Shown here in pieces: positions 39,616 through 51,724 of a stretch of 64,000 nt of DNA; within the stretch, counting starts at the first letter, position 1; each line of letters opens with the position of its first letter. Source of the DNA: Lentisphaeria bacterium (lineage in GTDB: Bacteria > Verrucomicrobiota > Lentisphaeria > JABSQK01 > JAWLHB01); assembly GCA_041690595.1 (NCBI GenBank), contig JAWLHB010000004.1, forward strand, positions 62,001-126,000, read 5' to 3'. The notes beneath the pieces were generated by a model. That model saw nothing but the letters and a program-made list of their open reading frames with translations. It did no database searches and was not told where the DNA came from. A program made the translations under genes and the position numbers.

Positions 39616-40425
39616 TCATGCGGATTTGCGGCGCTTGGGCTTGTCTGCCTTGCTCTTCTCCAGGCTCTCCCTGAGGGCCTGCATGAGATTGATGACCGGC
39701 GGACCTTCTTCCTGATGCACCGTGGCGACGGCGGAGACGTCTTCACCTTCGGCCTTCGCTTCGATCAGCTCCTCGACTTTCTTGCGGTATGTGTCTTCGT
39801 ACTGCTCGGGGGCAAATGCTTCCGTGAGGGATTCGATGAGCTGTTTGGCCATCTTGATCTCCTTGTCCGTGAGCTTCACATCCCCCGGCAGATCCCCAAG
39901 ATCCTCGGCCTCCTGAACTTCGTCGGCATAGTTCATGATGTGCAGAACCATGACGCCATCCTTCGGGCGCAGGGTGACGAGGTGCTGGCGCTCTCGCATG
40001 ACAAACTGGCCGATGGCGACGCGGCCGCTCTCTCGCATGGCGCGCTCGAGCAGGGCATACGCCTTGGCCCCGCCCTTGCCGGGAACGATGTAATAGCAAC
40101 GATCCCAGTAGATGGGATCCACCTCCTGAATGTCGATGAAGGCCTCCAGATCGATGGTATCCCCTTTCTCCGGCTTGATCTGATCGAGTTCGTCCTGCTG
40201 GACGATGACGTACTGATCGGGGGCGATCTCGACGCCGCGGGCCGTCTCCCCGAAATCGTACTCCTTGCCGTTCTCCGGGCAATACAGCTTGCGGCGGAGC
40301 CGACAGTTACCCTCCGGGCTGAGCATGTGAAAGTTCACGCGTTGTTGCCGTACGGCCGTCATCAGCTTGACGGGAAAGGTGACCAGGCCAAAGCTGATGC
40401 TACCTGTCCAGATGGAATGTGCCAT
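39616..40425 (-). CDS. ku: NHEJ DNA end-binding protein Ku
   Basis: SIWTGSISFGLV..PVKL, VINLMQALRESL. Confidence 0.95.
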   Translation of the reverse strand: MAHSIWTGSISFGLVTFPVKLMTAVRQQRVNFHMLSPEGNCRLRRKLYCPENGKEYDFGETARGVEIAPDQYVIVQQDELDQIKPEKGDTIDLEAFIDIQEVDPIYWDRCYYIVPGKGGAKAYALLERAMRESGRVAIGQFVMRERQHLVTLRPKDGVMVLHIMNYADEVQEAEDLGDLPGDVKLTDKEIKMAKQLIESLTEAFAPEQYEDTYRKKVEELIEAKAEGEDVSAVATVHQEEGPPVINLMQALRESLEKSKADKPKRRKSA

Positions 40426-40449
40426 GATAGGATCTCCTGATGGTGAGAG

Positions 40450-43023
40450 TCAAGCGATGCCCGTCGCCTGTTTCATCTTCCTGGTGATGGATTGGCGCAG
40501 GGAAAAGAAGCCTTCCCACGGGTCTGTCTTGATTGCACTGAGGCGCCGGCGGACATCGGGAACGCTGAAACTGTTGGGTAGCAGGTCGGCGTCAAGCTCG
40601 TCCCAGGTGACTGGAATCGCGACCGGCGCACCTTCCCGAGCCCGGGTCGAGTAGGAGCTGACGGCAGTGGCGCTGTGGCTGTTGCGCTGAAAATCGATGT
40701 AGATCCGCCCCTCTCGCTGCTTCTTGCTCATGTTGGCGGTGAAGCGGTCGCGATGATCGCGGGCCATCTGCGTGGCGATCGCTCCGGTGAAGGCCTTCGC
40801 CTCGTCCCAGCTCTGGCGGCGAGTAAGCGGGATGACCACGTGGATGCCCTTGCCACCCGAAAGGCGGGCGAAGCTGACAAGCCCCATCCCCGCCAGGCGA
40901 TCCCGCAGCTCGCGGGCGGCGGAGACGATCTCCTCCCACTCGATCTGCTCTCCCGGATCGAAATCGAAGATGAGGCGGTCGGGTTTGTCGGGTTGATCGG
41001 CGGTGCATCCCCACGGATGCAGTTCAAGAGCGCCGAACTGGATCAGGGTGATCAGACCGGCCAAGTCGTCGATGACGATGTACTCCTTGGGATCGCTCTT
41101 GCCGGCGATGTGGACGCCGCGAACCGGCGGCGGAAGCGTCTCCCCCACATGCCGCTGATAGAAGCAGTTTTTGCCACGACCAGATGGGCAGCGAACGAGG
41201 CTGACCGGTCGACCGACGAGGTGGGGCAGGATCCAGTCTGAGATCTCCGCGTAGTATTCGGCCAGATCCTGCTTGGTGAGTCCCATTTCAGGAAAGAGCA
41301 CACGATCCGGGCTGGAGAGGTTGACGCCGGCGATCTGGACGCCCTTCTTCTTGCGCTGGTTCATGGTAACCTGCTTTGGCGGCGTAGTACCGGCCGATGC
41401 CTTGTCGTCCGCCGGCTCGACGGTTTTGTCGGTGAGAGCGGGTTTTTCGCGGATGATGCTTTCGGGAGGTTTGTCCGCGCGCAGCCCTTTGAAGGAGGGA
41501 TGACGGAGCCGTCCATCGCCAGTCCATTCGGTGAATTCGACTTCGCAGACGAGCTTCGGCGTCACCCAGCGACCGGAGCGCTGCACCGCTTTCGGCAGAT
41601 CGATGAAGGGCGGCGACTTGCGCTCGATACCGTGCAGCTTGTTCGCCAGCTCTTCGAGAAGACGATCACTGAAGCCGGTACCGACGCCGCCACAGAAGCG
41701 CAGCTCCTCACCATCGTAGACGCCGACCAGCAGCGCGCCGAAGCCAAGGCGGGATCCTTCCGGCTCCGTGAAGCCCCCGATCACGAACTCCTGCCGGTGC
41801 ACGCACTTGACCTTGAGCCAGTTGCGGCTGCGTCGCCCGATGTAGGGTGCATCCGCCTTCTTGCAGATGATCCCTTCCAGATGATGCTCGCACGCTTGCT
41901 CATGAAACTCCGCTCCCTGGCCGACGATATGATCGAGATAACGGATATGCCCCGTTGCCTGGACGCCGAGAATGCTCCGCAGAAGCTGCTTGCGCTGGAG
42001 CTGCGGGCTCTTCCGGAGATCGTGGCCGGCGTAGTACAGGATGTCGAAGACGTAATAGACGACGGAGGAGGTGCCGCCGTCGCGGAGGAGATTCTGCAGC
42101 GCCTGGAAGTCGGTGGTGCCGTCCGGGCGCAAGACCACGGCCTCGCCATCAAAGATGGCATCTTCCAGGTCCAGCCCCTCCAGAGCGCGCCGCGGGTCGG
42201 TGAAGCGGGCTGTCCAGTCCTTCGCGTTGCGGGTCAGCAGGCGCACCTTGCCGTCTCGGATGTGAGCGACGAGGCGATAGCCGTCGAGCTTCATCTCGTG
42301 AATCCACTGGTCGCCGTCGGGGACGAGATCCACCAGGGTGGCAAGCTGCGGGCTGACCTCCTTCGGCATGGCGGCGCGGCGGGCGTTGGGCAGCGCGGAA
42401 GGTTCGGGTGCAGCCATCGGTGGCTCGTCCCCCCGCGCCTCGCCTTCCTGCCAGACGGAATCGGCATGACGGGTGATCTGCTTCATGCCGCGCCCGGTGA
42501 GAACGCTGCGGTCGTTAGCGTCGAGAAAGCCCTCCGCATCGGGATCCGCGATATCGTCGTGTTCCTTGATGAGGAGCCAGTTCTTGTCGTCTTCGCTCTG
42601 TTTCATCTGCACCAGAGCCCAGTTGCCCCGCATCTTTTCGCCCTCCAGGCGAAAGGAGAGTTTGCCCTTTCGCAAGCCCTTGTGCGGGTCGTCGTTCGGA
42701 GCCCAGGTGCCGCGATCCCAGAGCATGACGGTGCCGCCGCCGTACTCTCCGGCGGGGATGATGCCCTCGAAATCGCCATAGTCCAGCGGATGATCTTCCA
42801 CGGCGACGGCGAGGCGCTTTTCGCCGGGGTCCAGGCTGGGCCCCTTCGGCACCGCCCAGCTCTTCAAGACGCCATCCAGTTCCAGGCGAAAGTCGTAATG
42901 CAGATTTCGCGCCGCATGCTTCTGAACGACAAAGAGATTGCCGCCGGAGTCTGGGCGTTCGTTGCCGGCAGGCTCCGGGGTCTTGGCAAAATCGCGTTTT
43001 CGATGATAGTCTTCCAGTGGCAT
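40450..43023 (-). CDS. ligD: NHEJ DNA ligase D (phosphoesterase-ligase-polymerase)
   Basis: KRDFAKTPEP, HYDFRLE, EMKLDGYR, RLRHPSFKGLR, SGGKGIHV. Confidence 0.96.
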   Translation of the reverse strand: MPLEDYHRKRDFAKTPEPAGNERPDSGGNLFVVQKHAARNLHYDFRLELDGVLKSWAVPKGPSLDPGEKRLAVAVEDHPLDYGDFEGIIPAGEYGGGTVMLWDRGTWAPNDDPHKGLRKGKLSFRLEGEKMRGNWALVQMKQSEDDKNWLLIKEHDDIADPDAEGFLDANDRSVLTGRGMKQITRHADSVWQEGEARGDEPPMAAPEPSALPNARRAAMPKEVSPQLATLVDLVPDGDQWIHEMKLDGYRLVAHIRDGKVRLLTRNAKDWTARFTDPRRALEGLDLEDAIFDGEAVVLRPDGTTDFQALQNLLRDGGTSSVVYYVFDILYYAGHDLRKSPQLQRKQLLRSILGVQATGHIRYLDHIVGQGAEFHEQACEHHLEGIICKKADAPYIGRRSRNWLKVKCVHRQEFVIGGFTEPEGSRLGFGALLVGVYDGEELRFCGGVGTGFSDRLLEELANKLHGIERKSPPFIDLPKAVQRSGRWVTPKLVCEVEFTEWTGDGRLRHPSFKGLRADKPPESIIREKPALTDKTVEPADDKASAGTTPPKQVTMNQRKKKGVQIAGVNLSSPDRVLFPEMGLTKQDLAEYYAEISDWILPHLVGRPVSLVRCPSGRGKNCFYQRHVGETLPPPVRGVHIAGKSDPKEYIVIDDLAGLITLIQFGALELHPWGCTADQPDKPDRLIFDFDPGEQIEWEEIVSAARELRDRLAGMGLVSFARLSGGKGIHVVIPLTRRQSWDEAKAFTGAIATQMARDHRDRFTANMSKKQREGRIYIDFQRNSHSATAVSSYSTRAREGAPVAIPVTWDELDADLLPNSFSVPDVRRRLSAIKTDPWEGFFSLRQSITRKMKQATGIA

Positions 43024-43885: not shown

Positions 43886-45235
43886 TCACGCCTGCGCCTC
43901 GATCTCATGGTCGATGCGGCTCTGTTGCTCGTGCGACAGGGCGGGTAGTATACGGCGAACGACGGCTTTCTCGACCGCCTGGCGGAAGGCGTGGCTCTGC
44001 ACGAGATCGCGGGCGGTTACCATATTGGCCAGATCTTCCGCGAGATTCTCCACGTTGAACTGTCGGGGACGTTGCAGCCGCACCTGCTCAAAGAGCGATT
44101 CCTGCTTCTGCCACGCGAGCCAGAGGCGCAGGCAGGCGCTCTCGCTCTCGTCCAGAGCCGCTGCCTTGGTGGCGAGGCGGGCATTGAGCTGGCGAAACAT
44201 GATCTGGAGGGCACGTCCGCTCGGCACGACGGTGCTGTCGAAGAGGGCTTCGCCCCGCGTATTGGTCATGCGATAGATCTCGCCCACCTTGAGGGCGATG
44301 AAACGCAGGATCGCGTCGATGGGCTCAAGCACCTCGGCGCGCAGCCAGTCGGGCTTGCTGTGAGGAAGCGTCGGGTCGAACTGCATGACGGCGCGCGGGC
44401 CGACCGCCGGATTGACGCTTTCCTCTCCGAGCGACGGGCGGGGCATCATCAGCATGGGAAAGGCGGCCAGATCGATGACCTCGTCCGCCTGCGAGATGTT
44501 GCGCATGATGGAGACATCGATGCGGGCGATATCCTGAATATCGGAGGTGCCGATAAAGGGGTCGGCGCTCCGGGCATTGAAATGCCAGACAAAGGGGACA
44601 ATCCCCAGAGGGTTGGCGCCGAGGGCGACACAGCGATAGCGTCCTTGCTCATCGCGCTCCCACAGTTCCCACCGCTCCCGCGTCCAGCACCGGATCGTGC
44701 CATCGGCCTCCCGCAGCTTCACATACTCGAGGCGAGGCCGATGATGCTGGTCGCGGCCGTGACGCCAGTCGAGTATGTTGGTCGGCAGGTAGATCGCCAG
44801 GTAGGGATGAATGCCGGCGCGCAGCTCATCCTCGCGGCTTCGCGCTTCGCCTGGCGCCTTGGTGACGAGGATGCCGACATGGCCCAGGACGCTCGCATAT
44901 TGCTGCGCTTCGTGCCAGAAGAGGTCGTAGTCGGTGCCGAGCAGGTCGATGTCCTTCATGAAGGCATGGAAGAGCGCATCGTCCGCGAGGCGGCCGAGTT
45001 CGCGGGTTGGCGGCTTCTCGAAGAGGTAATGGAGAAAGATCTCGACGATGGAGCGGGAATAGTTGAAGGAGATCGCCTGGCGCTGACGCTGGGCATGATT
45101 CTCGGGTGACTCGCGGATATGCCGCGGCAGGGCGCCGGCGTCGATGAGCGCCTGCGTCCCCTGCCAGGCGGCGAGCAGGAATTTCCAGTCGGAGAGGTGC
45201 CGACGGTAGAGGGGATGGGTGGTTTCGATGTCCAT
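43886..45235 (-). CDS. Phage portal protein (SPP1 gp6/DUF4055-like)
   Basis: 449 aa; THPLY...W, ES.E....R...A..FNY, ILDW, NPLGIVPFV, SGRALQ. Confidence 0.8.
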   Translation of the reverse strand: MDIETTHPLYRRHLSDWKFLLAAWQGTQALIDAGALPRHIRESPENHAQRQRQAISFNYSRSIVEIFLHYLFEKPPTRELGRLADDALFHAFMKDIDLLGTDYDLFWHEAQQYASVLGHVGILVTKAPGEARSREDELRAGIHPYLAIYLPTNILDWRHGRDQHHRPRLEYVKLREADGTIRCWTRERWELWERDEQGRYRCVALGANPLGIVPFVWHFNARSADPFIGTSDIQDIARIDVSIMRNISQADEVIDLAAFPMLMMPRPSLGEESVNPAVGPRAVMQFDPTLPHSKPDWLRAEVLEPIDAILRFIALKVGEIYRMTNTRGEALFDSTVVPSGRALQIMFRQLNARLATKAAALDESESACLRLWLAWQKQESLFEQVRLQRPRQFNVENLAEDLANMVTARDLVQSHAFRQAVEKAVVRRILPALSHEQQSRIDHEIEAQA

Positions 45236-45255
45236 GAGATGAGATTCCTTTGGGT

Positions 45256-46104
45256 TCAGGCGCGGAGCCAGCGCATGGCGCCGCCATGTTTTTCCGGTGC
45301 CCAGCGCAGGGGCTGGCCGTTGGTATCGGCGATGGGCGGCACACGAAGGAGGATCCGGGTGATCTCCCAGAAGTCGCGGCCGGTTGCATCGCGCACAGTC
45401 TCGATGCTCTGATCGATCCCCCGCCAGACGCCCGCGGCCGTGGCATCCGGGAGATGGAAGCGGGTGGGAATGCAGGCGGGGCTGCCATCGGTGACTCCGC
45501 CAAAATCGAGATAGCGGCTGAGGAAGTTGGCGCGGGCGTGAAAGACGATGGTTGACACTTCGCAGCGGGCACTCTGTTGATGCATCTGCCACGCTGGGGT
45601 GTGGGTAAAGGGAGAGGCCGCCGGAGGCTGCTGCGCCGCGGCCGGCCAGTCGAGGAGCCATGTCGGGTCCGCGGGATCGCGCTGAATGGGGGCATGCCCC
45701 GGAACGCCGCTGCCGAGATTGACATGCTCGGCGCTCCACGGCGAGCCATCCGTCGGGCGCGGCGGGAGAGGTTGCACCCCCAGTACCGCCGACGAGAAGA
45801 GAAAATCGCGGCGGCTGAAACTGATGTGGTAGAGGGAGCGAAGGTTCTCGCGGTCGAAGGAGATGCCGACGGCGATACTGGGTCGGGCGGTGACGCTGAC
45901 GTAATCGACGTGCGGCGCAAAGGCGGTCACGGCGACCTTGTCGACGATCCATCCCGGTACCAGCAGGTCGGCGGCATCGCCGCGATGGGGGCGGAACTCG
46001 CGGTCGGCGGCGGCCATCCGGAAGCGCGCCTGGGCATAGGTGCCCTGAGCATCTTCGTGAAGGTCGACATTATCGATAAGCTGCAGGCAGGTCCAGTCGG
46101 CCAT
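45256..46104 (-). CDS. Hypothetical protein, possibly tail/baseplate component
   Basis: 282 aa beta-rich ORF in the cassette, GGAG RBS. Confidence 0.6.
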   Translation of the reverse strand: MADWTCLQLIDNVDLHEDAQGTYAQARFRMAAADREFRPHRGDAADLLVPGWIVDKVAVTAFAPHVDYVSVTARPSIAVGISFDRENLRSLYHISFSRRDFLFSSAVLGVQPLPPRPTDGSPWSAEHVNLGSGVPGHAPIQRDPADPTWLLDWPAAAQQPPAASPFTHTPAWQMHQQSARCEVSTIVFHARANFLSRYLDFGGVTDGSPACIPTRFHLPDATAAGVWRGIDQSIETVRDATGRDFWEITRILLRVPPIADTNGQPLRWAPEKHGGAMRWLRA

Positions 46105-46127: not shown

Positions 46128-46418
46128 TTATTCATCGAGGAGGAAATGGGCGAGGGGCCGAAAGAGTTCGGCAAGCTCGCGCAGGTGCTGATTGGCGAGC
46201 CTGGTTTCGGCCTTGAGCTGGCGCAGCTCGTCGAGGATGGCATCCGATGGGGTGGCGGCCCCTTCGGTGATGGTTGGATCATGGGTTGCTCCTTCTTGTT
46301 TCGGTTTGCCGCCGGCGGCCTGCGCCGTGCCGCTGAAGGAGGCTTCCAGCTCGGCAAGCTGTTGACGGGCCTGATCGGCCGCCAGTTGAATGTCGATGGT
46401 AAGTGTTTGTTCACTCAT
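46128..46418 (-). CDS. 96-aa protein resembling a collapsed tape-measure protein
   Basis: N-terminal LTIDIQLAADQARQQL and C-terminal LDELRQL..ANQHLREL helices joined by a short linker. Confidence 0.45.
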   Translation of the reverse strand: MSEQTLTIDIQLAADQARQQLAELEASFSGTAQAAGGKPKQEGATHDPTITEGAATPSDAILDELRQLKAETRLANQHLRELAELFRPLAHFLLDE

Positions 46419-46761
46419 GGCGTTTGTTCAGGTTGGCGGTGGTGCGAAGCTGGGTACTGATCTCGTTGGGAATGCAGGGGCAGCGATGGATGGCGGTGCA
46501 GGCGTCGTGAAGGGCATCGGCGATGCGCTGAAAGGCCTGGCTGTTGGTGTCGAGGGCGGTGGCGGCGTGGTTGAGCGCGGAGCGCAGGTCGCCGCGATAA
46601 TCGCCCTCCAGGCTCTCGATGCGGGCAATCAGCGACTGCTCGCGACGGTAGCCGCGAGTGATGGCCTCCTTGCTCAGCCAGAAGATGTGCCAGAGCAGGA
46701 CGGCACAAAGCGCGATCCACGGGCCGAAGCTGTCGGCAAGGCGGGTGAGGTGGTCAAGCAT
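46411..46761 (-). CDS. Holin-like single-TM coiled-coil protein
   Basis: FGPWIALCAVLLWHIFW TM then REQSLIARIESLE; overlaps both neighbours. Confidence 0.55.
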   Translation of the reverse strand: MLDHLTRLADSFGPWIALCAVLLWHIFWLSKEAITRGYRREQSLIARIESLEGDYRGDLRSALNHAATALDTNSQAFQRIADALHDACTAIHRCPCIPNEISTQLRTTANLNKRHE

Positions 46762-47521
46762 GGGCGGCTCCCTCCATGGTGTCGATGTAGGCGTCGATGC
46801 CGTGGTAGCGTTTGAAGAGACTCCGGCGCTTCATCCAGGTGAGGGCTCCAAGGGTTCGCCAGGCGAGCCGCAGTTGGCGGAGCCGGCCAACATGCCGATA
46901 ACCGAGTGTGCAGGGGGCCACCCACGGGACGGGATCCGGCCCGTTGACGATACGCATGGATGGGATCACCGCGTCAAAGGCGCGCCGATAGCGCCGCTGG
47001 GCGACGCGTGGAGCCCCGAAGGTCACCATCCGGACAGGCACCAGGCCGTCGAAGTGCAGGTAGAGATCGTAAGCGGCGGGAACGGCCTCCCCACCCCCTT
47101 TGCTGTGACCGGTGACGGTGATGGAAGCCGGCTGCCCCATATCCTCGAGCAGACGCTGACGCAGCGCCTGATAGCCGTGCAGGAAGCCGGCGTGGAGCGG
47201 CATGCCATAGTGATGGCATGGCCGACAGTCCAGGTTGGCCAGCCAGTCGATGGGGCTGTCGCTGCCACGGAAGACCAGGACGAGGTGCTCCCCGGGGCGA
47301 CGGTAGAGCTGCGCCTGCGCGTCGAGATGAACGCGGCGCTGGCAGGTAGGGCAGGCATAGTCGCCATAGTAGTCATACGCATCGACAAGGCCGGGCGCCT
47401 GGGCACGGATGATCCACGGATTGCTGTACGAGAGGCGGGCGAGCCGCGCGAGATCCAGGTTGGACAGCTCGGGCAGCGCGAGCAGCTGCGCAAGTGCCGG
47501 GGTTTGAGCGGATTGATGCAT
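46754..47521 (-). CDS. Class 3 lipase (alpha/beta hydrolase)
   Basis: VFRGSD, LHAGF, TGHSKGG, TFGAPRV, DPVP, YRHVG, HGIDAY: complete Ser-Asp-His set. Confidence 0.9.
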   Translation of the reverse strand: MHQSAQTPALAQLLALPELSNLDLARLARLSYSNPWIIRAQAPGLVDAYDYYGDYACPTCQRRVHLDAQAQLYRRPGEHLVLVFRGSDSPIDWLANLDCRPCHHYGMPLHAGFLHGYQALRQRLLEDMGQPASITVTGHSKGGGEAVPAAYDLYLHFDGLVPVRMVTFGAPRVAQRRYRRAFDAVIPSMRIVNGPDPVPWVAPCTLGYRHVGRLRQLRLAWRTLGALTWMKRRSLFKRYHGIDAYIDTMEGAAHA

Positions 47522-47557: not shown

Positions 47558-47905
47558 TCAGGAAACGATGGGGTCGCCGGCGAAGTCGAGAATGGTGGTG
47601 CGGGTGCGGTCACTCCATGAGGCGGAGACCAACCCGGTGAAGGTGGCAATGACGGTGCTGCCCCGCCGGAGGGTGATGGTGTCGGTCGTGGCCGGCAGTG
47701 TATCCAGGTGGGTGTGATCGCCACGAAGCTCGAGGCGCGCGCGGATATCCACGGCCTGCCGGTCGTGATGAATGCGGCCGTCGGCGGTGGTGGTGGCGAT
47801 GTCTCGCCCGCGCTCCTGGTAGGTGCCGCTGCCCGGCAGGACCAGTTCCGCGGGGAGATGGTGGTCGCCAATGAGGGCGTTGTCGAAGGGAAGCAGTGAT
47901 GGCAT
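47558..47905 (-). CDS. Small beta-rich hypothetical virion protein
   Basis: 115 aa from MPSLLPFD, GGAGG RBS. Confidence 0.6.
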   Translation of the reverse strand: MPSLLPFDNALIGDHHLPAELVLPGSGTYQERGRDIATTTADGRIHHDRQAVDIRARLELRGDHTHLDTLPATTDTITLRRGSTVIATFTGLVSASWSDRTRTTILDFAGDPIVS

Positions 47906-47925: not shown

Positions 47926-48261
47926 TCAGGGCCGGGAGCCCTTCCAGGTGATGGTGGCAATCTGAAGAGCATCGCCTTGAATGCTCAGGTCGACGAGGGC
48001 GCCGACGGCGGTTGGCGGATCGCCGGAGACGGTGACATCGCCGGGACCGACGGGAGAGCGCAGCATCCGCAGGCTGGCGAAGCTTTGGTCGCCCTCGTCG
48101 CGCACCAGGCACTGAAGGGAACCCTGGCGCAGAAGGCCGGCCCGGACGTTGGGTACCTGTCGTCCCCCACGGTCGTCGTGGCCACCTCCATGTCGAAGGG
48201 TTCCGGGAATCGGGTTTATCATGAGTGTTTGCTCACCATCGCGTGCAAAGATGACTGTCAT
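47926..48261 (-). CDS. Small beta-rich hypothetical virion protein (possibly tail-tube-like)
   Basis: 111 aa, GGAG RBS, directly after the terminator-like gene. Confidence 0.55.
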   Translation of the reverse strand: MTVIFARDGEQTLMINPIPGTLRHGGGHDDRGGRQVPNVRAGLLRQGSLQCLVRDEGDQSFASLRMLRSPVGPGDVTVSGDPPTAVGALVDLSIQGDALQIATITWKGSRP

Positions 48262-48288: not shown

Positions 48289-48699
48289 TCAGGGAAGGAG
48301 GACGTCGAAGCTGACGAGGTAGAGGGTGTTGGTGGCGCCGAGATCAAGGGGCATGTCGCCCTGATACTGCCAGATGGCGTCGCGGTAGGAGAAGTCATCG
48401 AGTCTGGCGATGGATTCATCCAGGAGGGCGCGCGCATTGGCGGCCCCAGTCTCGGCCTGGGCATGGGAGGTGGCGATGAGCAGTTGCAGGCTGAGGCGGC
48501 GTCGCGGGTGCTGCTGACGGCGGCCGCCCTGGTAGATGACGATGACGGCGGGCAGTTGCGTCGCGTTCAGGCGCTGATAGAGGGCCTGGAGGGAGCTGCC
48601 GGAGAAGGTGAGCACCTGCCAATCCGGGTACGCGCGCAGCCGCTCGGCGGTCTGTTGCAGGATGGTCTCGGTCGATTCGAGGTAGTCGGTCAGCGGCAT
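48289..48699 (-). CDS. Tail terminator-like protein
   Basis: 136 aa from MPLTDY; LPAVIVIYQG, ALLDESIARLDDF, YLVSF; position after neck gene. Confidence 0.6.
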   Translation of the reverse strand: MPLTDYLESTETILQQTAERLRAYPDWQVLTFSGSSLQALYQRLNATQLPAVIVIYQGGRRQQHPRRRLSLQLLIATSHAQAETGAANARALLDESIARLDDFSYRDAIWQYQGDMPLDLGATNTLYLVSFDVLLP

Positions 48700-48719: not shown

Positions 48720-49139
48720 CTAGGAGGTAAGAAGCTCGCGAAGATCGTCGAGGGTGGCGGGTGAATCGTCCGGGGCGAAGCCGAAGAAGGGACGAGTGGG
48801 CTGGTTGGCGGCGGCTTTGAAGGCGGAGTGGGAGTCGAGGAAGGTGAGGGAGACCCCGTCGCCGGTGAGGCGCGGGGCCATGGCGGCAAGCATGGCGCCG
48901 GTATGGAAGAGGTTGACGGCGGGAGAGGCGCCGGAGCGTTCCCGCTGCCGGCGCCAGGCCGGGGTATAGGGCCGAAACCGCTCTCCCGCGAGGCTGATGC
49001 CGGCGGCAGTGCGCCGCAGGATGCGCAGGCGCTGACGATCGGCAAGCTCGAGGAGGAGATCGGGGGCGGCAAGGCGATCCAGCAGCTGCTGGAGAGACTG
49101 ACCGGCGGCCTGACCGTCGATATGGAGGGGCGGCAGCAT
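48720..49139 (-). CDS. Virion morphogenesis / tail-completion (neck) protein
   Basis: G..F.PY...W, VNLFHTGAMLAAM, RPFFGF motifs. Confidence 0.72.
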   Translation of the reverse strand: MLPPLHIDGQAAGQSLQQLLDRLAAPDLLLELADRQRLRILRRTAAGISLAGERFRPYTPAWRRQRERSGASPAVNLFHTGAMLAAMAPRLTGDGVSLTFLDSHSAFKAAANQPTRPFFGFAPDDSPATLDDLRELLTS

Positions 49140-49141
49140 GA

Positions 49142-49588
49142 TCAGAGACGCTCCAGTATACGCGTTTCGAGCGGGCGGGCGGTCTCGGCCGGCGCGATGT
49201 TGGCGGAGCCGTCCCAGTCATAATCGAGACCGGCGGCAAGGACATCGGCTAGTTCAGCGGCGTAGCGAGCCTCCCAAGTGGCGGCGAGATGGTGAAAGGG
49301 CTCGTCGGGGTGTCCTTTGGCGAGATAGAGATAGACCAGGTGGAGCGCCTTGCAGGCAGCCAGCATAGTGAGCTGTTCGTCGGCATGCAGGAGGTTGGCT
49401 CTGGAGAAGGGGAGGTGATCGGGGTCGAGCCCGCGCTGGCGGGCGGCGGCACGGTACCAGCCAATGGTAAGCGCCCGGTCGACAATCCGGGTGGCTTCGG
49501 CGAGCTGATGGGGCCACGCGGTGGGGCCGAGCTGAAGGATCTCCGGGCGCAGCTTTTCGAGGTCCGAATCGGTGCAGTAGGTGCTCAT
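49142..49588 (-). CDS. Head-tail adaptor protein
   Basis: YCTDSDL N-terminus, EATRIVDRAL, Y..EL...LDYD; follows capsid gene. Confidence 0.7.
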   Translation of the reverse strand: MSTYCTDSDLEKLRPEILQLGPTAWPHQLAEATRIVDRALTIGWYRAAARQRGLDPDHLPFSRANLLHADEQLTMLAACKALHLVYLYLAKGHPDEPFHHLAATWEARYAAELADVLAAGLDYDWDGSANIAPAETARPLETRILERL

Positions 49589-49614: not shown

Positions 49615-49662
49615 GGGGAAAATGCCGCCGGGAGCGCGGCGCGGCCGTGGGCTCCCGGCGGC
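49615..49662 (-). terminator. Intrinsic terminator/attenuator after the major capsid gene
   Basis: GCCGCCGGGAGC/GCTCCCGGCGGC 12-bp stem (49624-49662) followed by ATTTT on the minus strand. Confidence 0.7.
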
Positions 49663-49681: not shown

Positions 49682-50659
49682 TCAGGAGGTGTGGATCTCG
49701 ATCCCGCCGGCGTTCTTGACGTTGCTGGTCACGAGGGTCCAGTTGGCCGTGTCGCCCAGCTCGGCGTCACTGGGGTTGGGAGCGGCGGTGGAGAACTGGA
49801 AGCCCTTGACGCGCGCATTGAAGGCGTACTCTCCCTGGATGCGGAAGAGGAGCTGAGCCTTGCCGGTGATCATCTCCGCGGCGATGGTCTCTTCTTCGGA
49901 TTCGGTGACGACGAGTCCGTCGCGGGCGAAGCCGAGGGTATGGTAGGAGACTGGGTCGACACCATTGTCATGGCGCAGCGCATCGGCATCGGTGACGATG
50001 ACGGGGAGACCGAGCGTCTCGACGGTTCCGGCGCGGACGGTGAGGTTGGCAATGCCGGTGATGTTGTCCGCGAGCGACTGCTGCATGAGGTCGAAGTAGA
50101 CCTTGGAATGCATCACCCAGCAGACGATCCGCTGGGCGGCATCGCCGAGCCTGGCGAGGCCGCCGAGGAGGTGGCCGTGGGTCATGGTCGGCGTCTGCAG
50201 GGCGGTGGCGTCAAAGCGGAGCCGCGGATCCGTCTGAAACGCGGCGCGGGCGGCGAGGAGACCCGAATCCAGGAAGTTGAGGGTCTTTGCCTGTGCGACC
50301 ATGCGGCCGACGATGAGGGACATCTGCGCGGCGTCCATGCCGATCTTCTTGAAGGAATTGAGGGTCTGAGTGACGGGGCCGATGCGGCGGTCGAGCTTGA
50401 CGCCCACTTCCTCCCCCTGGGTGAGGGGCAGGTCATCGGCGTCGAGGAGGCTGCTCAGGTCGCGTCGGGAGACGAGGCCGACGATGGTATCGAAGAAGGC
50501 TTCCTTCTCGTACTGGCCGAGGAGTTCTTGCTGCACGAAGCGGATGCCGAAGTTGCTGGCCTCGTTGAAGGCGCGGATGGTACGGGCGAGCGCCTCGTAT
50601 TTGCCGAGCTGGTACTGGGCGTCCTGAAGGACGAAGTCGGATTGTTTGCCGATAGGCAT
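49682..50659 (-). CDS. Major capsid protein (HK97 fold expected)
   Basis: 325 aa; AFNEASNFGI, CWVMHSKVYFDL, LGLPVIVTD, IQGEYAFNARVKGF, NPSDAELGDTANW; AAGGAG RBS. Confidence 0.88.
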   Translation of the reverse strand: MPIGKQSDFVLQDAQYQLGKYEALARTIRAFNEASNFGIRFVQQELLGQYEKEAFFDTIVGLVSRRDLSSLLDADDLPLTQGEEVGVKLDRRIGPVTQTLNSFKKIGMDAAQMSLIVGRMVAQAKTLNFLDSGLLAARAAFQTDPRLRFDATALQTPTMTHGHLLGGLARLGDAAQRIVCWVMHSKVYFDLMQQSLADNITGIANLTVRAGTVETLGLPVIVTDADALRHDNGVDPVSYHTLGFARDGLVVTESEEETIAAEMITGKAQLLFRIQGEYAFNARVKGFQFSTAAPNPSDAELGDTANWTLVTSNVKNAGGIEIHTS

Positions 50660-50742
50660 GATGGTTGCTCCTTGTTGATGAGCGATTTGTTACAGCCGCA
50701 CCATGCGGCCATGACTCATGAGTGATTAGTTAAAGTTATGAC

Positions 50743-51507
50743 TCAGCCGCGGGTATCGGCATCGATGAGCTGCCGCGCGGCCTGCATGCCGTGCTGGTCG
50801 ATGAAGCGCGCCTGTTCCTCGACATCCATCTGGCTCCATGGGCGGGAGTCCTCGGGATGGAGAGAGGCAGCGCCGCCGCCGGCGCCGCCGCCGCCGGGAT
50901 GGCCTGCCTTGAGCATGCGATCCCGATGAGGGTGGCGCTGGATGATCTGCTGGAGCGCCTCTTCGGGGTTGGCGTAGTCGCCGGGACGGGATGGAGACAT
51001 GATCGGTTGGCCGTCGACGCGAGCGATCGGCACGGGGCGGCCGTTGCGCTCTTCCACGTGGAAGTTCTGGCCGAAGTAGACGTAGGCCATCTCCGGCAAG
51101 AGAAGGGTCTGTTCACGCAGAAAGTCCGAGGTATCGAAGGCGGACTTGATGAGCAGATCGTGAATCTGGCTGTCGCGCTGGGCGATGGTCTCGTCGCGCT
51201 GTTGCAGGCGGCTGGTGTACTGCTCTTCGATGTGGCGGCGCACCTGTTCGGCCTCGCCGGCATCGATGAGGGACTTGTTGGCGAGGTCCTCGAGCTTGCG
51301 CAGCGCGTCATGGGCGGCGGCGGGTTCGATCTCCCCATAAGCGCTGAGGGCGGCGTTGAGTTCGCCAACGCGGGCAGAGAGCTGACTGATGGTGGCTTGC
51401 ATGGCGACGGGGTCGACGGCCAACTCGGAGCCGTCATCCTGAAGGTAGAGCGGAAGATCGTCGGCAGTGAGGACCGGGTGGCCAAGGTCATTACGTTTGA
51501 GTTTCAC
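50743..51507 (-). CDS. Capsid scaffolding protein (DUF6651-like)
   Basis: GTG start 6 nt after AAGGAG; MKLK..., LPLYLQDDGSE, LIDAGEAEQV, SRPGDYANPEEAL, Gly-rich tail. Confidence 0.8.
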   Translation of the reverse strand: MKLKRNDLGHPVLTADDLPLYLQDDGSELAVDPVAMQATISQLSARVGELNAALSAYGEIEPAAAHDALRKLEDLANKSLIDAGEAEQVRRHIEEQYTSRLQQRDETIAQRDSQIHDLLIKSAFDTSDFLREQTLLLPEMAYVYFGQNFHVEERNGRPVPIARVDGQPIMSPSRPGDYANPEEALQQIIQRHPHRDRMLKAGHPGGGGAGGGAASLHPEDSRPWSQMDVEEQARFIDQHGMQAARQLIDADTRG

Positions 51508-51539
51508 AGACATCTCCTTTTTCTTGTTAAGGTGCCAAT

Positions 51540-51567
51540 ACCATAGCACCAAAACTCGAAAAGTCAA
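51540..51567 (-). promoter_or_regulatory. Putative sigma70 promoter of the virion cassette
   Basis: TTGACT-N16-TATGGT with extended -10 TGn; palindrome ATAAC-N6-GTTAT just upstream (51575-51590). Confidence 0.5.
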
Positions 51568-51724
51568 GCCGGATATAACCAAAAAGTTATCACAGGTAAG
51601 GAAATTATGTCGGCACGGTGTGGGAGGGGTCTGGGGAGACGGGGAGTTGAAATCGCGGAGGCGACCGCTACTCTAATAGAGGAGTTCAGGCACGGCGTCC
51701 GCGGCCTGGCGCAAGGATGCAAGG

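Follow-up and report, generated by a model that had tools for sequence, protein, structure and literature searches.

A portal gene placed last in a phage-like operon of a Lentisphaeria genome, and the dispersed, GTA-like system to which it may belong

How did a phage portal gene come to stand last in an operon that opens with the scaffold and capsid genes, and to what kind of phage system does such an operon belong? The operon lies on contig C4 of a host genome of 8.1 Mb (99 contigs, 97% complete), within the 64,000-nucleotide stretch analysed here (the window), and a preliminary description held that its portal had been relocated and retained in an operon without terminase. Our analysis suggests that the operon supplies the structural genes of a domesticated phage system that is GTA-like and spread over several loci; we consider this reading reasonably probable for this one genome.

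The structural operon and its portal gene

The operon consists of 12 contiguous, co-oriented open genes on the minus strand (window positions 51513-43886), with host genes at both ends. Upstream of it lie a sigma-70-type promoter (51540..51567, minus strand; -35 and -10 boxes, a 16-nt spacer and TG), which belongs to the family of the 39 array promoters described below, and, directly 5' of the -35 box, a 16-bp imperfect dyad that is a candidate repressor operator (51575..51590, minus strand). The first gene encodes a head scaffolding protein of 256 aa (50743..51513; PF20356, phrog_206/784), and the second, behind a gap in which the dyad matrix finds a second dyad (50711..50726), encodes a Gp13-like major capsid protein of 325 aa (49682..50659; PF20036, E 2e-72; phrog_247). 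A post-capsid RNA hairpin followed by four U (49624..49662, minus strand) precedes a probable head-tail adaptor of 148 aa (49142..49588), which has no family match and is assigned by position and by homologs 3' of the capsid gene in phage loci. The next genes encode a neck/tail-completion-like protein of 139 aa (48720..49139; weak PF05069) with homologs in the IMG/VR phage locus L081 and other phage loci, and a probable tail terminator of 136 aa (48289..48699), also assigned by position and 31% identical to the L081 gene at the same position. The 111-aa protein that follows (47926..48261) has a tail-tube/Hcp/Dit fold according to structure searches with its model (pLDDT 93); its Foldseek and VIA matches are mainly tail tube, Hcp and baseplate chains (best structural match: Z 8.5, rmsd 3.8, 106 aligned).

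Further downstream, a probable distal tail protein of 115 aa (47558..47905; 36% to its L081 neighbour, with an Atlas lead below 0.9 to minor-tail families) is followed by a class-3 lipase of 255 aa (46754..47521; PF01764, E 2e-20; phrog_21992), which is possibly a lysis or entry factor, and by a holin-like protein of 116 aa (46411..46761; weak PF10960, E 0.06, under the cut-off). A 96-aa gene (46128..46418) then stands directly 5' of the gene for a 282-aa phage protein in the tail-tip position (45256..46104; Atlas 0.93 to unnamed viral clusters), residues 1-111 of which are 31% identical to an L081 gene located 3' of the long tail gene. The counterpart position of the 96-aa gene in L081 is occupied by a 746-aa tape-measure-like gene; we rejected the 96-aa gene as a tape-measure remnant, because the alignment showed no significant similarity (E 0.088) and the match is positional only. 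The 12th and final gene encodes the portal protein of 449 aa (43886..45235). Genes for an endolysin, a long tape measure, a sheath or a toxin were not seen among the 12, no att-like repeats flank the operon, and no match to the minor-head family PF04233 was found. One gene away from the portal end, the window also carries Ku and LigD genes for non-homologous end joining (39616-43023, minus strand).

The gene had been described as a full-length portal-like gene, and both profile and fold bear this out. The SPP1-type portal profile phrog_145 covers residues 1-448 of 449 (E 1.2e-56), and the AlphaFold model (mean pLDDT 79.3) had phage portal 8xb5 as its top Foldseek match (E 6e-16), the remaining listed rows being portals or portal-tail complexes. 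The clip (residues 258-303) shows no deletion in the alignment and keeps invariant positions among 10 relatives, in a segment where the pLDDT is below 50.

We surveyed gene order in IMG/VR loci using a capsid-based set (n = 80) and a portal-based set (n = 74), which overlap and hold near-duplicates. A portal was present in 54 of the 80 capsid-based loci and lay upstream on the same strand in 53 of these; the sole exception, L104, has a divergent portal and is not portal-last. A head gene was present in 33 of the 74 portal-based loci, all 33 of which showed the canonical order. Moreover, terL was located 5' of the portal in 16/16 and 52/52 IMG/VR loci of two overlapping sets. The portal-last order was observed in none of these loci. 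The closest portal relative with context, L190 (by eye the same as protein P0003), has a portal 60% identical to that of the operon with terL directly before it, and the C-terminus of its TerL resembles the TerL encoded on contig C2 of the host genome. Since the portal of the closest relative stands directly behind terL, these results support the proposal that the portal left a terminase operon and was kept intact; the move would have taken it from its place after terL to the last position among the structural genes. The portal carries C at 136 of 209 third positions, where 156 would be expected for the present operon and 77 for the terminase operon. This codon bias fits an old move with incomplete adaptation, an argument of little weight. 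Third-position bias of C versus G ranges from -0.6 to +0.8 between adjacent operons genome-wide, an unusually local compositional pattern.

The preliminary description had further related the position of the portal downstream of the hairpin to a low portal stoichiometry. The hairpin is real (z -3.69), although it is followed by four U only and drew no terminator call, and it may lower the expression of all downstream genes, the portal included. However, every neck and tail gene, like the portal, sits 3' of it, and gene dispersal is general both in the host system and in the system of family f7 described below; the stoichiometry argument is therefore unneeded. The portal remains in the same regulon, and no particular adaptive reason has to be invoked for its place in the operon.

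Terminase locus and shared dyad

The statement that the operon lacks a terminase is correct locally, none being present within the 64-kb window, and fails as worded for the genome, because an intact cognate pair of TerL and TerS is encoded on C2. PF03237 has its single match in the genome there, and PF04466 and PF17289 have no matches in the genome. The C2 locus is a divergent pair, with a CI-like repressor (two HTH and an S24 domain; an obvious Ala-Gly cleavage site is absent by eye) on one side and, on the other, an operon in which an acidic gene of 131 aa precedes terS (109 aa) and terL (439 aa); the locus is flanked by host genes, which follow terL in mid-contig. The leading gene of this operon (G000:C2:168656-169051) encodes a very acidic protein without family match, for which a role as DNA mimic or regulator would be a guess. 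What we take to be the Walker A/B motifs and the acidic residues of the nuclease are kept in TerL. The C2 TerS aligns to residues 62-156 of the L081 TerS and lacks the N-terminal HTH, which is present in all eight phage TerS homologs aligned with it; no frameshifted HTH remnant was found upstream of C2 terS in any frame. A short TerS without N-terminal DNA-binding domain, encoded upstream of terL, is a GTA trait; loss of the HTH has been proposed as a hallmark of GTA small terminases, whose sizes are given as 92-125 aa in PMC6854486.

The locus L081 (IMGVR_UViG_3300035208_000662) contains homologs of nine operon genes together with TerS and TerL (31-45% identity), and these homologs (scaffold, capsid, neck genes, the 111-, 115- and 282-aa genes, portal, TerS and TerL) occur in canonical order. 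The comparison shows that one phage type, represented by L081, accounts for most of the operon and for the C2 TerS-TerL pair. The two differ in that L081 has the canonical order, a TerS with HTH, a minor head protein and the 746-aa tape-measure-like gene, whereas the operon in the window lacks the latter two.

The dyad at the scaffold promoter links this operon to other loci. The closest matches to the palindrome include the intergenic region between the terminase operon and the CI gene on C2. An initial shared-motif test was weak by itself, as an equally good match to the scaffold promoter region was given by 24 of 792 other intergenic regions. An earlier dyad matrix was seeded with the window and C2 sites and was thus circular; we therefore relied on a matrix for which the 39 arrays were the sole training set. 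With this promoter matrix, the scaffold promoter was the best non-array match in 8.1 Mb (26.7 bits versus 17.0 for the next), after seven higher rows flagged as not near arrays had been set aside, these being themselves array or terS promoters. The top non-array dyad sites obtained with array training were the scaffold promoter (ranked first), C19 (unexplained), C20, the scaffold-capsid gap and C2; the top sites on C19 and C31 are without a phage-like neighbour. The dyad is common to the operon, the C2 terminase/CI region, a replication operon on C20, an operon on C54 and the promoters of the 39 arrays. The exact 16-mer pattern occurred 23 times in the host genome and in none of 60 relatives, and a reversed control gave 0 matches; viral contigs contained no exact copy of the array promoter pattern. 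We rejected the dyad as a host SOS box, since among the 90 of 99 matches listed it is absent upstream of recA (C29) and of a probable lexA (C56).

On C20, the dyad precedes a lone two-gene replication operon of DnaD-like and DnaC-like phage families (G000:C20:82996-84640) that lies among host genes and has iteron-like repeats inside the initiator gene. A phage initiator and loader are thus present at a separate locus, with no contiguous phage genome for them to replicate. A truncated copy of the initiator, 83% identical to that of C20 and with its own dyad upstream, is located at C3:12571-13130. Behind the dyad on C54 (C54:11219-14147) is an operon encoding proteins of about 121, 288 and 534 aa without family match; the largest of them, of 534 aa, contains repeats of a motif resembling those of phage tail fibres. 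No integrase was found at the C4, C2, C20 or C54 loci, the eight integrase matches being on other contigs. The genome also contains a separate, apparently complete prophage (C5:52000-90000) with a GpA terminase, a lambda-type portal, a capsid and a tape measure; the genome's tape-measure gene is part of this unrelated prophage.

Small-terminase paralogs and repeat arrays

The family PF03592 has 14 matches in the host genome, compared with 0-1 in each of 60 relatives, and a custom profile adds two terS-like copies, giving 16. Seven copies contain the whole TerS domain and 9 of the 16 keep the HTH only, followed by repeats; many of the genes have long low-complexity C-termini, and several are at contig ends. 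For the six full paralogs, dN/dS was 0.09-0.49 and dS 0.13-0.48 (15 pairs), and the HTH of 14 copies had a mean dN of 0.14 and a mean dS of 0.41; judged by these ratios, the six full paralogs compared appear to be under purifying selection. The dispersed copies form their own clade (support 0.998), and the C2 TerS groups with L081 instead. The dispersed copies may therefore derive from another phage and may not engage the C2 TerL.

A directional promoter containing the dyad is present in 45 intergenic copies. Requiring this promoter together with a -10 element and two or more boxes 3' of it yielded 39 arrays, with 49 repeat clusters, on 40 of the 99 contigs (e.g. C6:181887-183598, C7:56659-58382, C49:48412-49601 and C12:1828-2942); about a dozen carry terS-like genes. 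The mean spacing is about 190 kb. The box, mostly a 12-bp direct-repeat pair, is found in fixed orientation 3' of 36 of 42 promoters, most boxes being downstream of the promoter and the first at a median of 165 nt from it, and 181 of its 258 genome copies are inside promoter-array elements. Neither the 64-kb window nor the C2 terminase locus nor the C5 prophage contains it. Its nucleotides are fixed in 197 of 210 in-array instances versus 44 of 411 in called genes, and it is in frame within terS genes and in mixed frames in most other arrays. The box therefore resembles a DNA site, although recent tandem copying could also have fixed its nucleotides. The arrays also hold a genome-wide REP-like palindrome. 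Among the promoters with a called downstream gene, 34 of 38 face it, and seven further promoters reach a contig end; the gene calls show no integrase or transposase beside the arrays. Oriented direct repeats at or within terS genes correspond to a pac site in form only. PMC4737164 describes the SPP1 pac site as direct repeats spanning promoters and the terS start, and reports that the HTH of SF6 TerS shows no preference for pac repeats. The arrays may be packaging start sites, a tentative proposal that we consider somewhat less probable than its opposite.

A GTA-like reading, its rivals and its relatives

These observations are consistent with a mechanism that we regard, taken jointly, as probable on balance, namely joint repression and induction through CI, assembly with the relocated portal and packaging of host DNA. 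The CI-like protein would repress the operon and the C2, C20, C54 and array loci through the dyad, and on induction, the cell would assemble short-tailed particles whose heads carry the relocated portal. Two further steps are more weakly founded. Packaging may start at the arrays, with the terS paralogs acting on their own or together with the C2 TerS in the style of lateral transduction, which we hold to be somewhat less probable than not, and run-off replication may proceed from C20, like that of the Bartonella GTA (BaGTA). In favour of the GTA-like reading, all 12 operon ORFs are open, as are TerS, TerL, CI and the C20 pair, and the phage structural and packaging genes are in dispersed chromosomal operons without integrase at the loci, which is a trait of GTAs. 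The dispersed terS paralogs keep their HTH, which is not how known GTAs are described. Against the reading stand its occurrence in one genome, the separate clade of these paralogs and the nine copies reduced to the HTH, the lack of preference of the SF6 HTH for pac repeats, the location of most boxes 3' of the promoter and amid a REP-like palindrome, the lack of a long tape-measure gene and of an endolysin gene in the operon, a CI without an obvious cleavage site, the top dyad sites on C19 and C31 and the C54 genes without family match. A bolder version, tentative and with the balance leaning against it, would be inducible, chromosome-wide lateral transduction, in which a split phage machine under one repressor has terS paralogs reading the arrays and a phage run-off origin. 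About 40-50 oriented start arrays, ~190 kb apart, would then direct packaging from fixed addresses into host operons, and the particle genes themselves would be without a start site.

Among the rival explanations, it is unlikely that the GTA-like machine is real and the terS-promoter-repeat arrays are selfish minimal satellites, preferentially packaged and copied upstream of host operons, and no adaptation of the host. Their recent expansion (dS 0.13-0.48), the separation of their terS clade from the C2 TerS and the many truncated or ORF-less copies would suit such satellites, and, speculatively, the adjacent Ku-LigD pair could fix incoming ends at new sites. However, the arrays share the dyad with the structural genes, no integrase or transposase was seen beside them, and 34 of 38 sites are oriented toward the downstream gene. 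We consider it quite unlikely that the loci represent leftover, rearranged pieces of one or two defective prophages that make no particle, the arrays being strong phage-derived promoters and repeats spread for unrelated reasons. All relatives searched lack the system, the minor-head and tape-measure genes have been lost, the truncated rep copy on C3 resembles debris, and the arrays face host genes and could, for example, drive host operons; but the structural, terminase, CI and C20 genes are all open despite the loss of the remaining phage, codon usage shows local adaptation, the dyad persists at four distinct phage-gene loci, and the terS paralogs show purifying selection. There is also little probability that particles filled with host DNA act, without gene transfer, as killers comparable to PBSX-like particles or as devices for lysis or DNA release. 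The lipase and holin-like gene of the operon and a tail that appears minimal, without a long tape measure, would agree with such a role, whereas a sheath or toxin gene was not observed there, and the oriented arrays and terS paralogs point to a choice of packaged DNA.

Capsid-forming PICIs are contiguous elements with integrase, primase and head/packaging genes and without tail genes. The separate C5 prophage could lend tails or lysis to such a satellite, but the locus has no integrase or primase, the genes are divided among contigs with the terminase on another contig, and the operon has its own tail-tube-fold gene, which makes a capsid-forming satellite highly improbable. Still harder to credit is an assembly chimera at the portal. 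The genome is a draft in 99 contigs with no independent contig across the junctions, and four public DNA runs from one study (possibly the source of the genome) gave no bridge over a portal junction among the longest near-identical pieces; they contain short near-identical pieces inside the operon and its flanks, one of which ends at 45236. On the other side, the 20-mers at both portal junctions are single-copy in the genome, and the codon bias of the portal fits its present operon on C4, not the C2 operon, which together make misassembly unlikely; moreover, the 20-nt gap before the portal holds a ribosome-binding-like site, and C2 terL runs into host genes in mid-contig.

The GTA-like reading can be set beside known systems. 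In RcGTA (Rhodobacter capsulatus), terminase, portal and capsid genes are in one cluster. As in the host system, the phage genes of RcGTA are at multiple loci, and RcGTA-type TerS proteins, of 92-125 aa without DNA-binding domain, are encoded directly 5' of terL, as is the 109-aa C2 TerS (PMC6854486). RcGTA packages nearly at random, whereas the HTH-bearing TerS paralogs and oriented repeats of the host suggest defined starts, and the regulator of the host system is CI-like, unlike that of RcGTA. BaGTA, as outlined in PMC2697382, shares with the host system a chromosomal structural/packaging cluster and a separate phage-derived replication locus; its lineage is unrelated, and the host system differs in having the terminase also apart from the portal and head genes, 14-16 terS paralogs and 39 arrays. 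BaGTA is conserved in its genus and experimentally shown (PMC2697382), whereas the host system is known from the genes of one genome alone, its new element being the multiplied terS genes and arrays in what appears to be a GTA-like system with BaGTA-like and lateral-transduction-like features. In lateral transduction, 80alpha and P22 prophages package in situ from a chromosomal pac over 7-12 headfuls or 315-516 kb (PMC8575950), a span comparable with the mean array spacing of ~190 kb. The site of 80alpha and P22 is inside an intact, propagating prophage, whereas the host has no contiguous phage genome and its candidate sites are multiplied chromosome-wide.

Known GTAs are thought to have gained genome-wide transfer through lost small-terminase specificity. 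The host genome suggests a second route, in which specificity was kept and the terS gene and its target were multiplied across the chromosome; if true, this route would bridge GTAs and lateral transduction, and DNA coverage in virions would step up one-sidedly at each array and decay over successive headfuls. The system would also illustrate an intermediate stage of phage domestication in which operons break up, the portal having already left terL, and would extend candidate GTAs to a further bacterial class, Lentisphaeria. In the literature covered, which included few subscription papers, we found no published description of multi-copy chromosomal terS genes or arrays and no report of a GTA in Lentisphaeria. 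The capsid was not found in 400 genomes of the phylum, and TerL (E<=1e-40) together with PF20036 (over the cut-off) occurred in 1 of 351 genomes of the class, a sample without another member of the host's family. Unplaced proteins are 57-75% identical to the capsid and 60-62% to the portal; relatives of the system therefore exist.

A family of the same class (f7) has a portal of the same PHROG family and a homologous CI-like regulator (25-41%), which was detected in 15 of 36 f7 genomes and in no other of 150 genomes, and in several of its genomes the portal, capsid and terminase are at separate loci. In contrast to the host system, its capsid is SU10-like and its TerL distant (about 24%), and PF03592 and the array motif had no match in the 13 f7 genomes searched; these differences suggest an independent capture. 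Most f7 genomes sampled carry a head/packaging module (L016-L029, L227-L241), which some of them have in compact form and others as separate portal, scaffold-capsid and terL loci. Inspection of 25 regions 5' of the f7 loci showed no dyad; many of these loci have an upstream GTTGAC element without a clear -10, perhaps pointing to a dedicated sigma factor or activator. Finally, contigs of Desulfovibrionaceae MAGs (L112-L114) contain terL-portal pairs of the same lineage among host genes (portal 45-46%, TerL 57%), and none of the three genomes with these pairs has a capsid of the host type. In L114, terS-like and lysis-like genes lie upstream of the pair, and L112-L114 possibly represent a further split packaging system.
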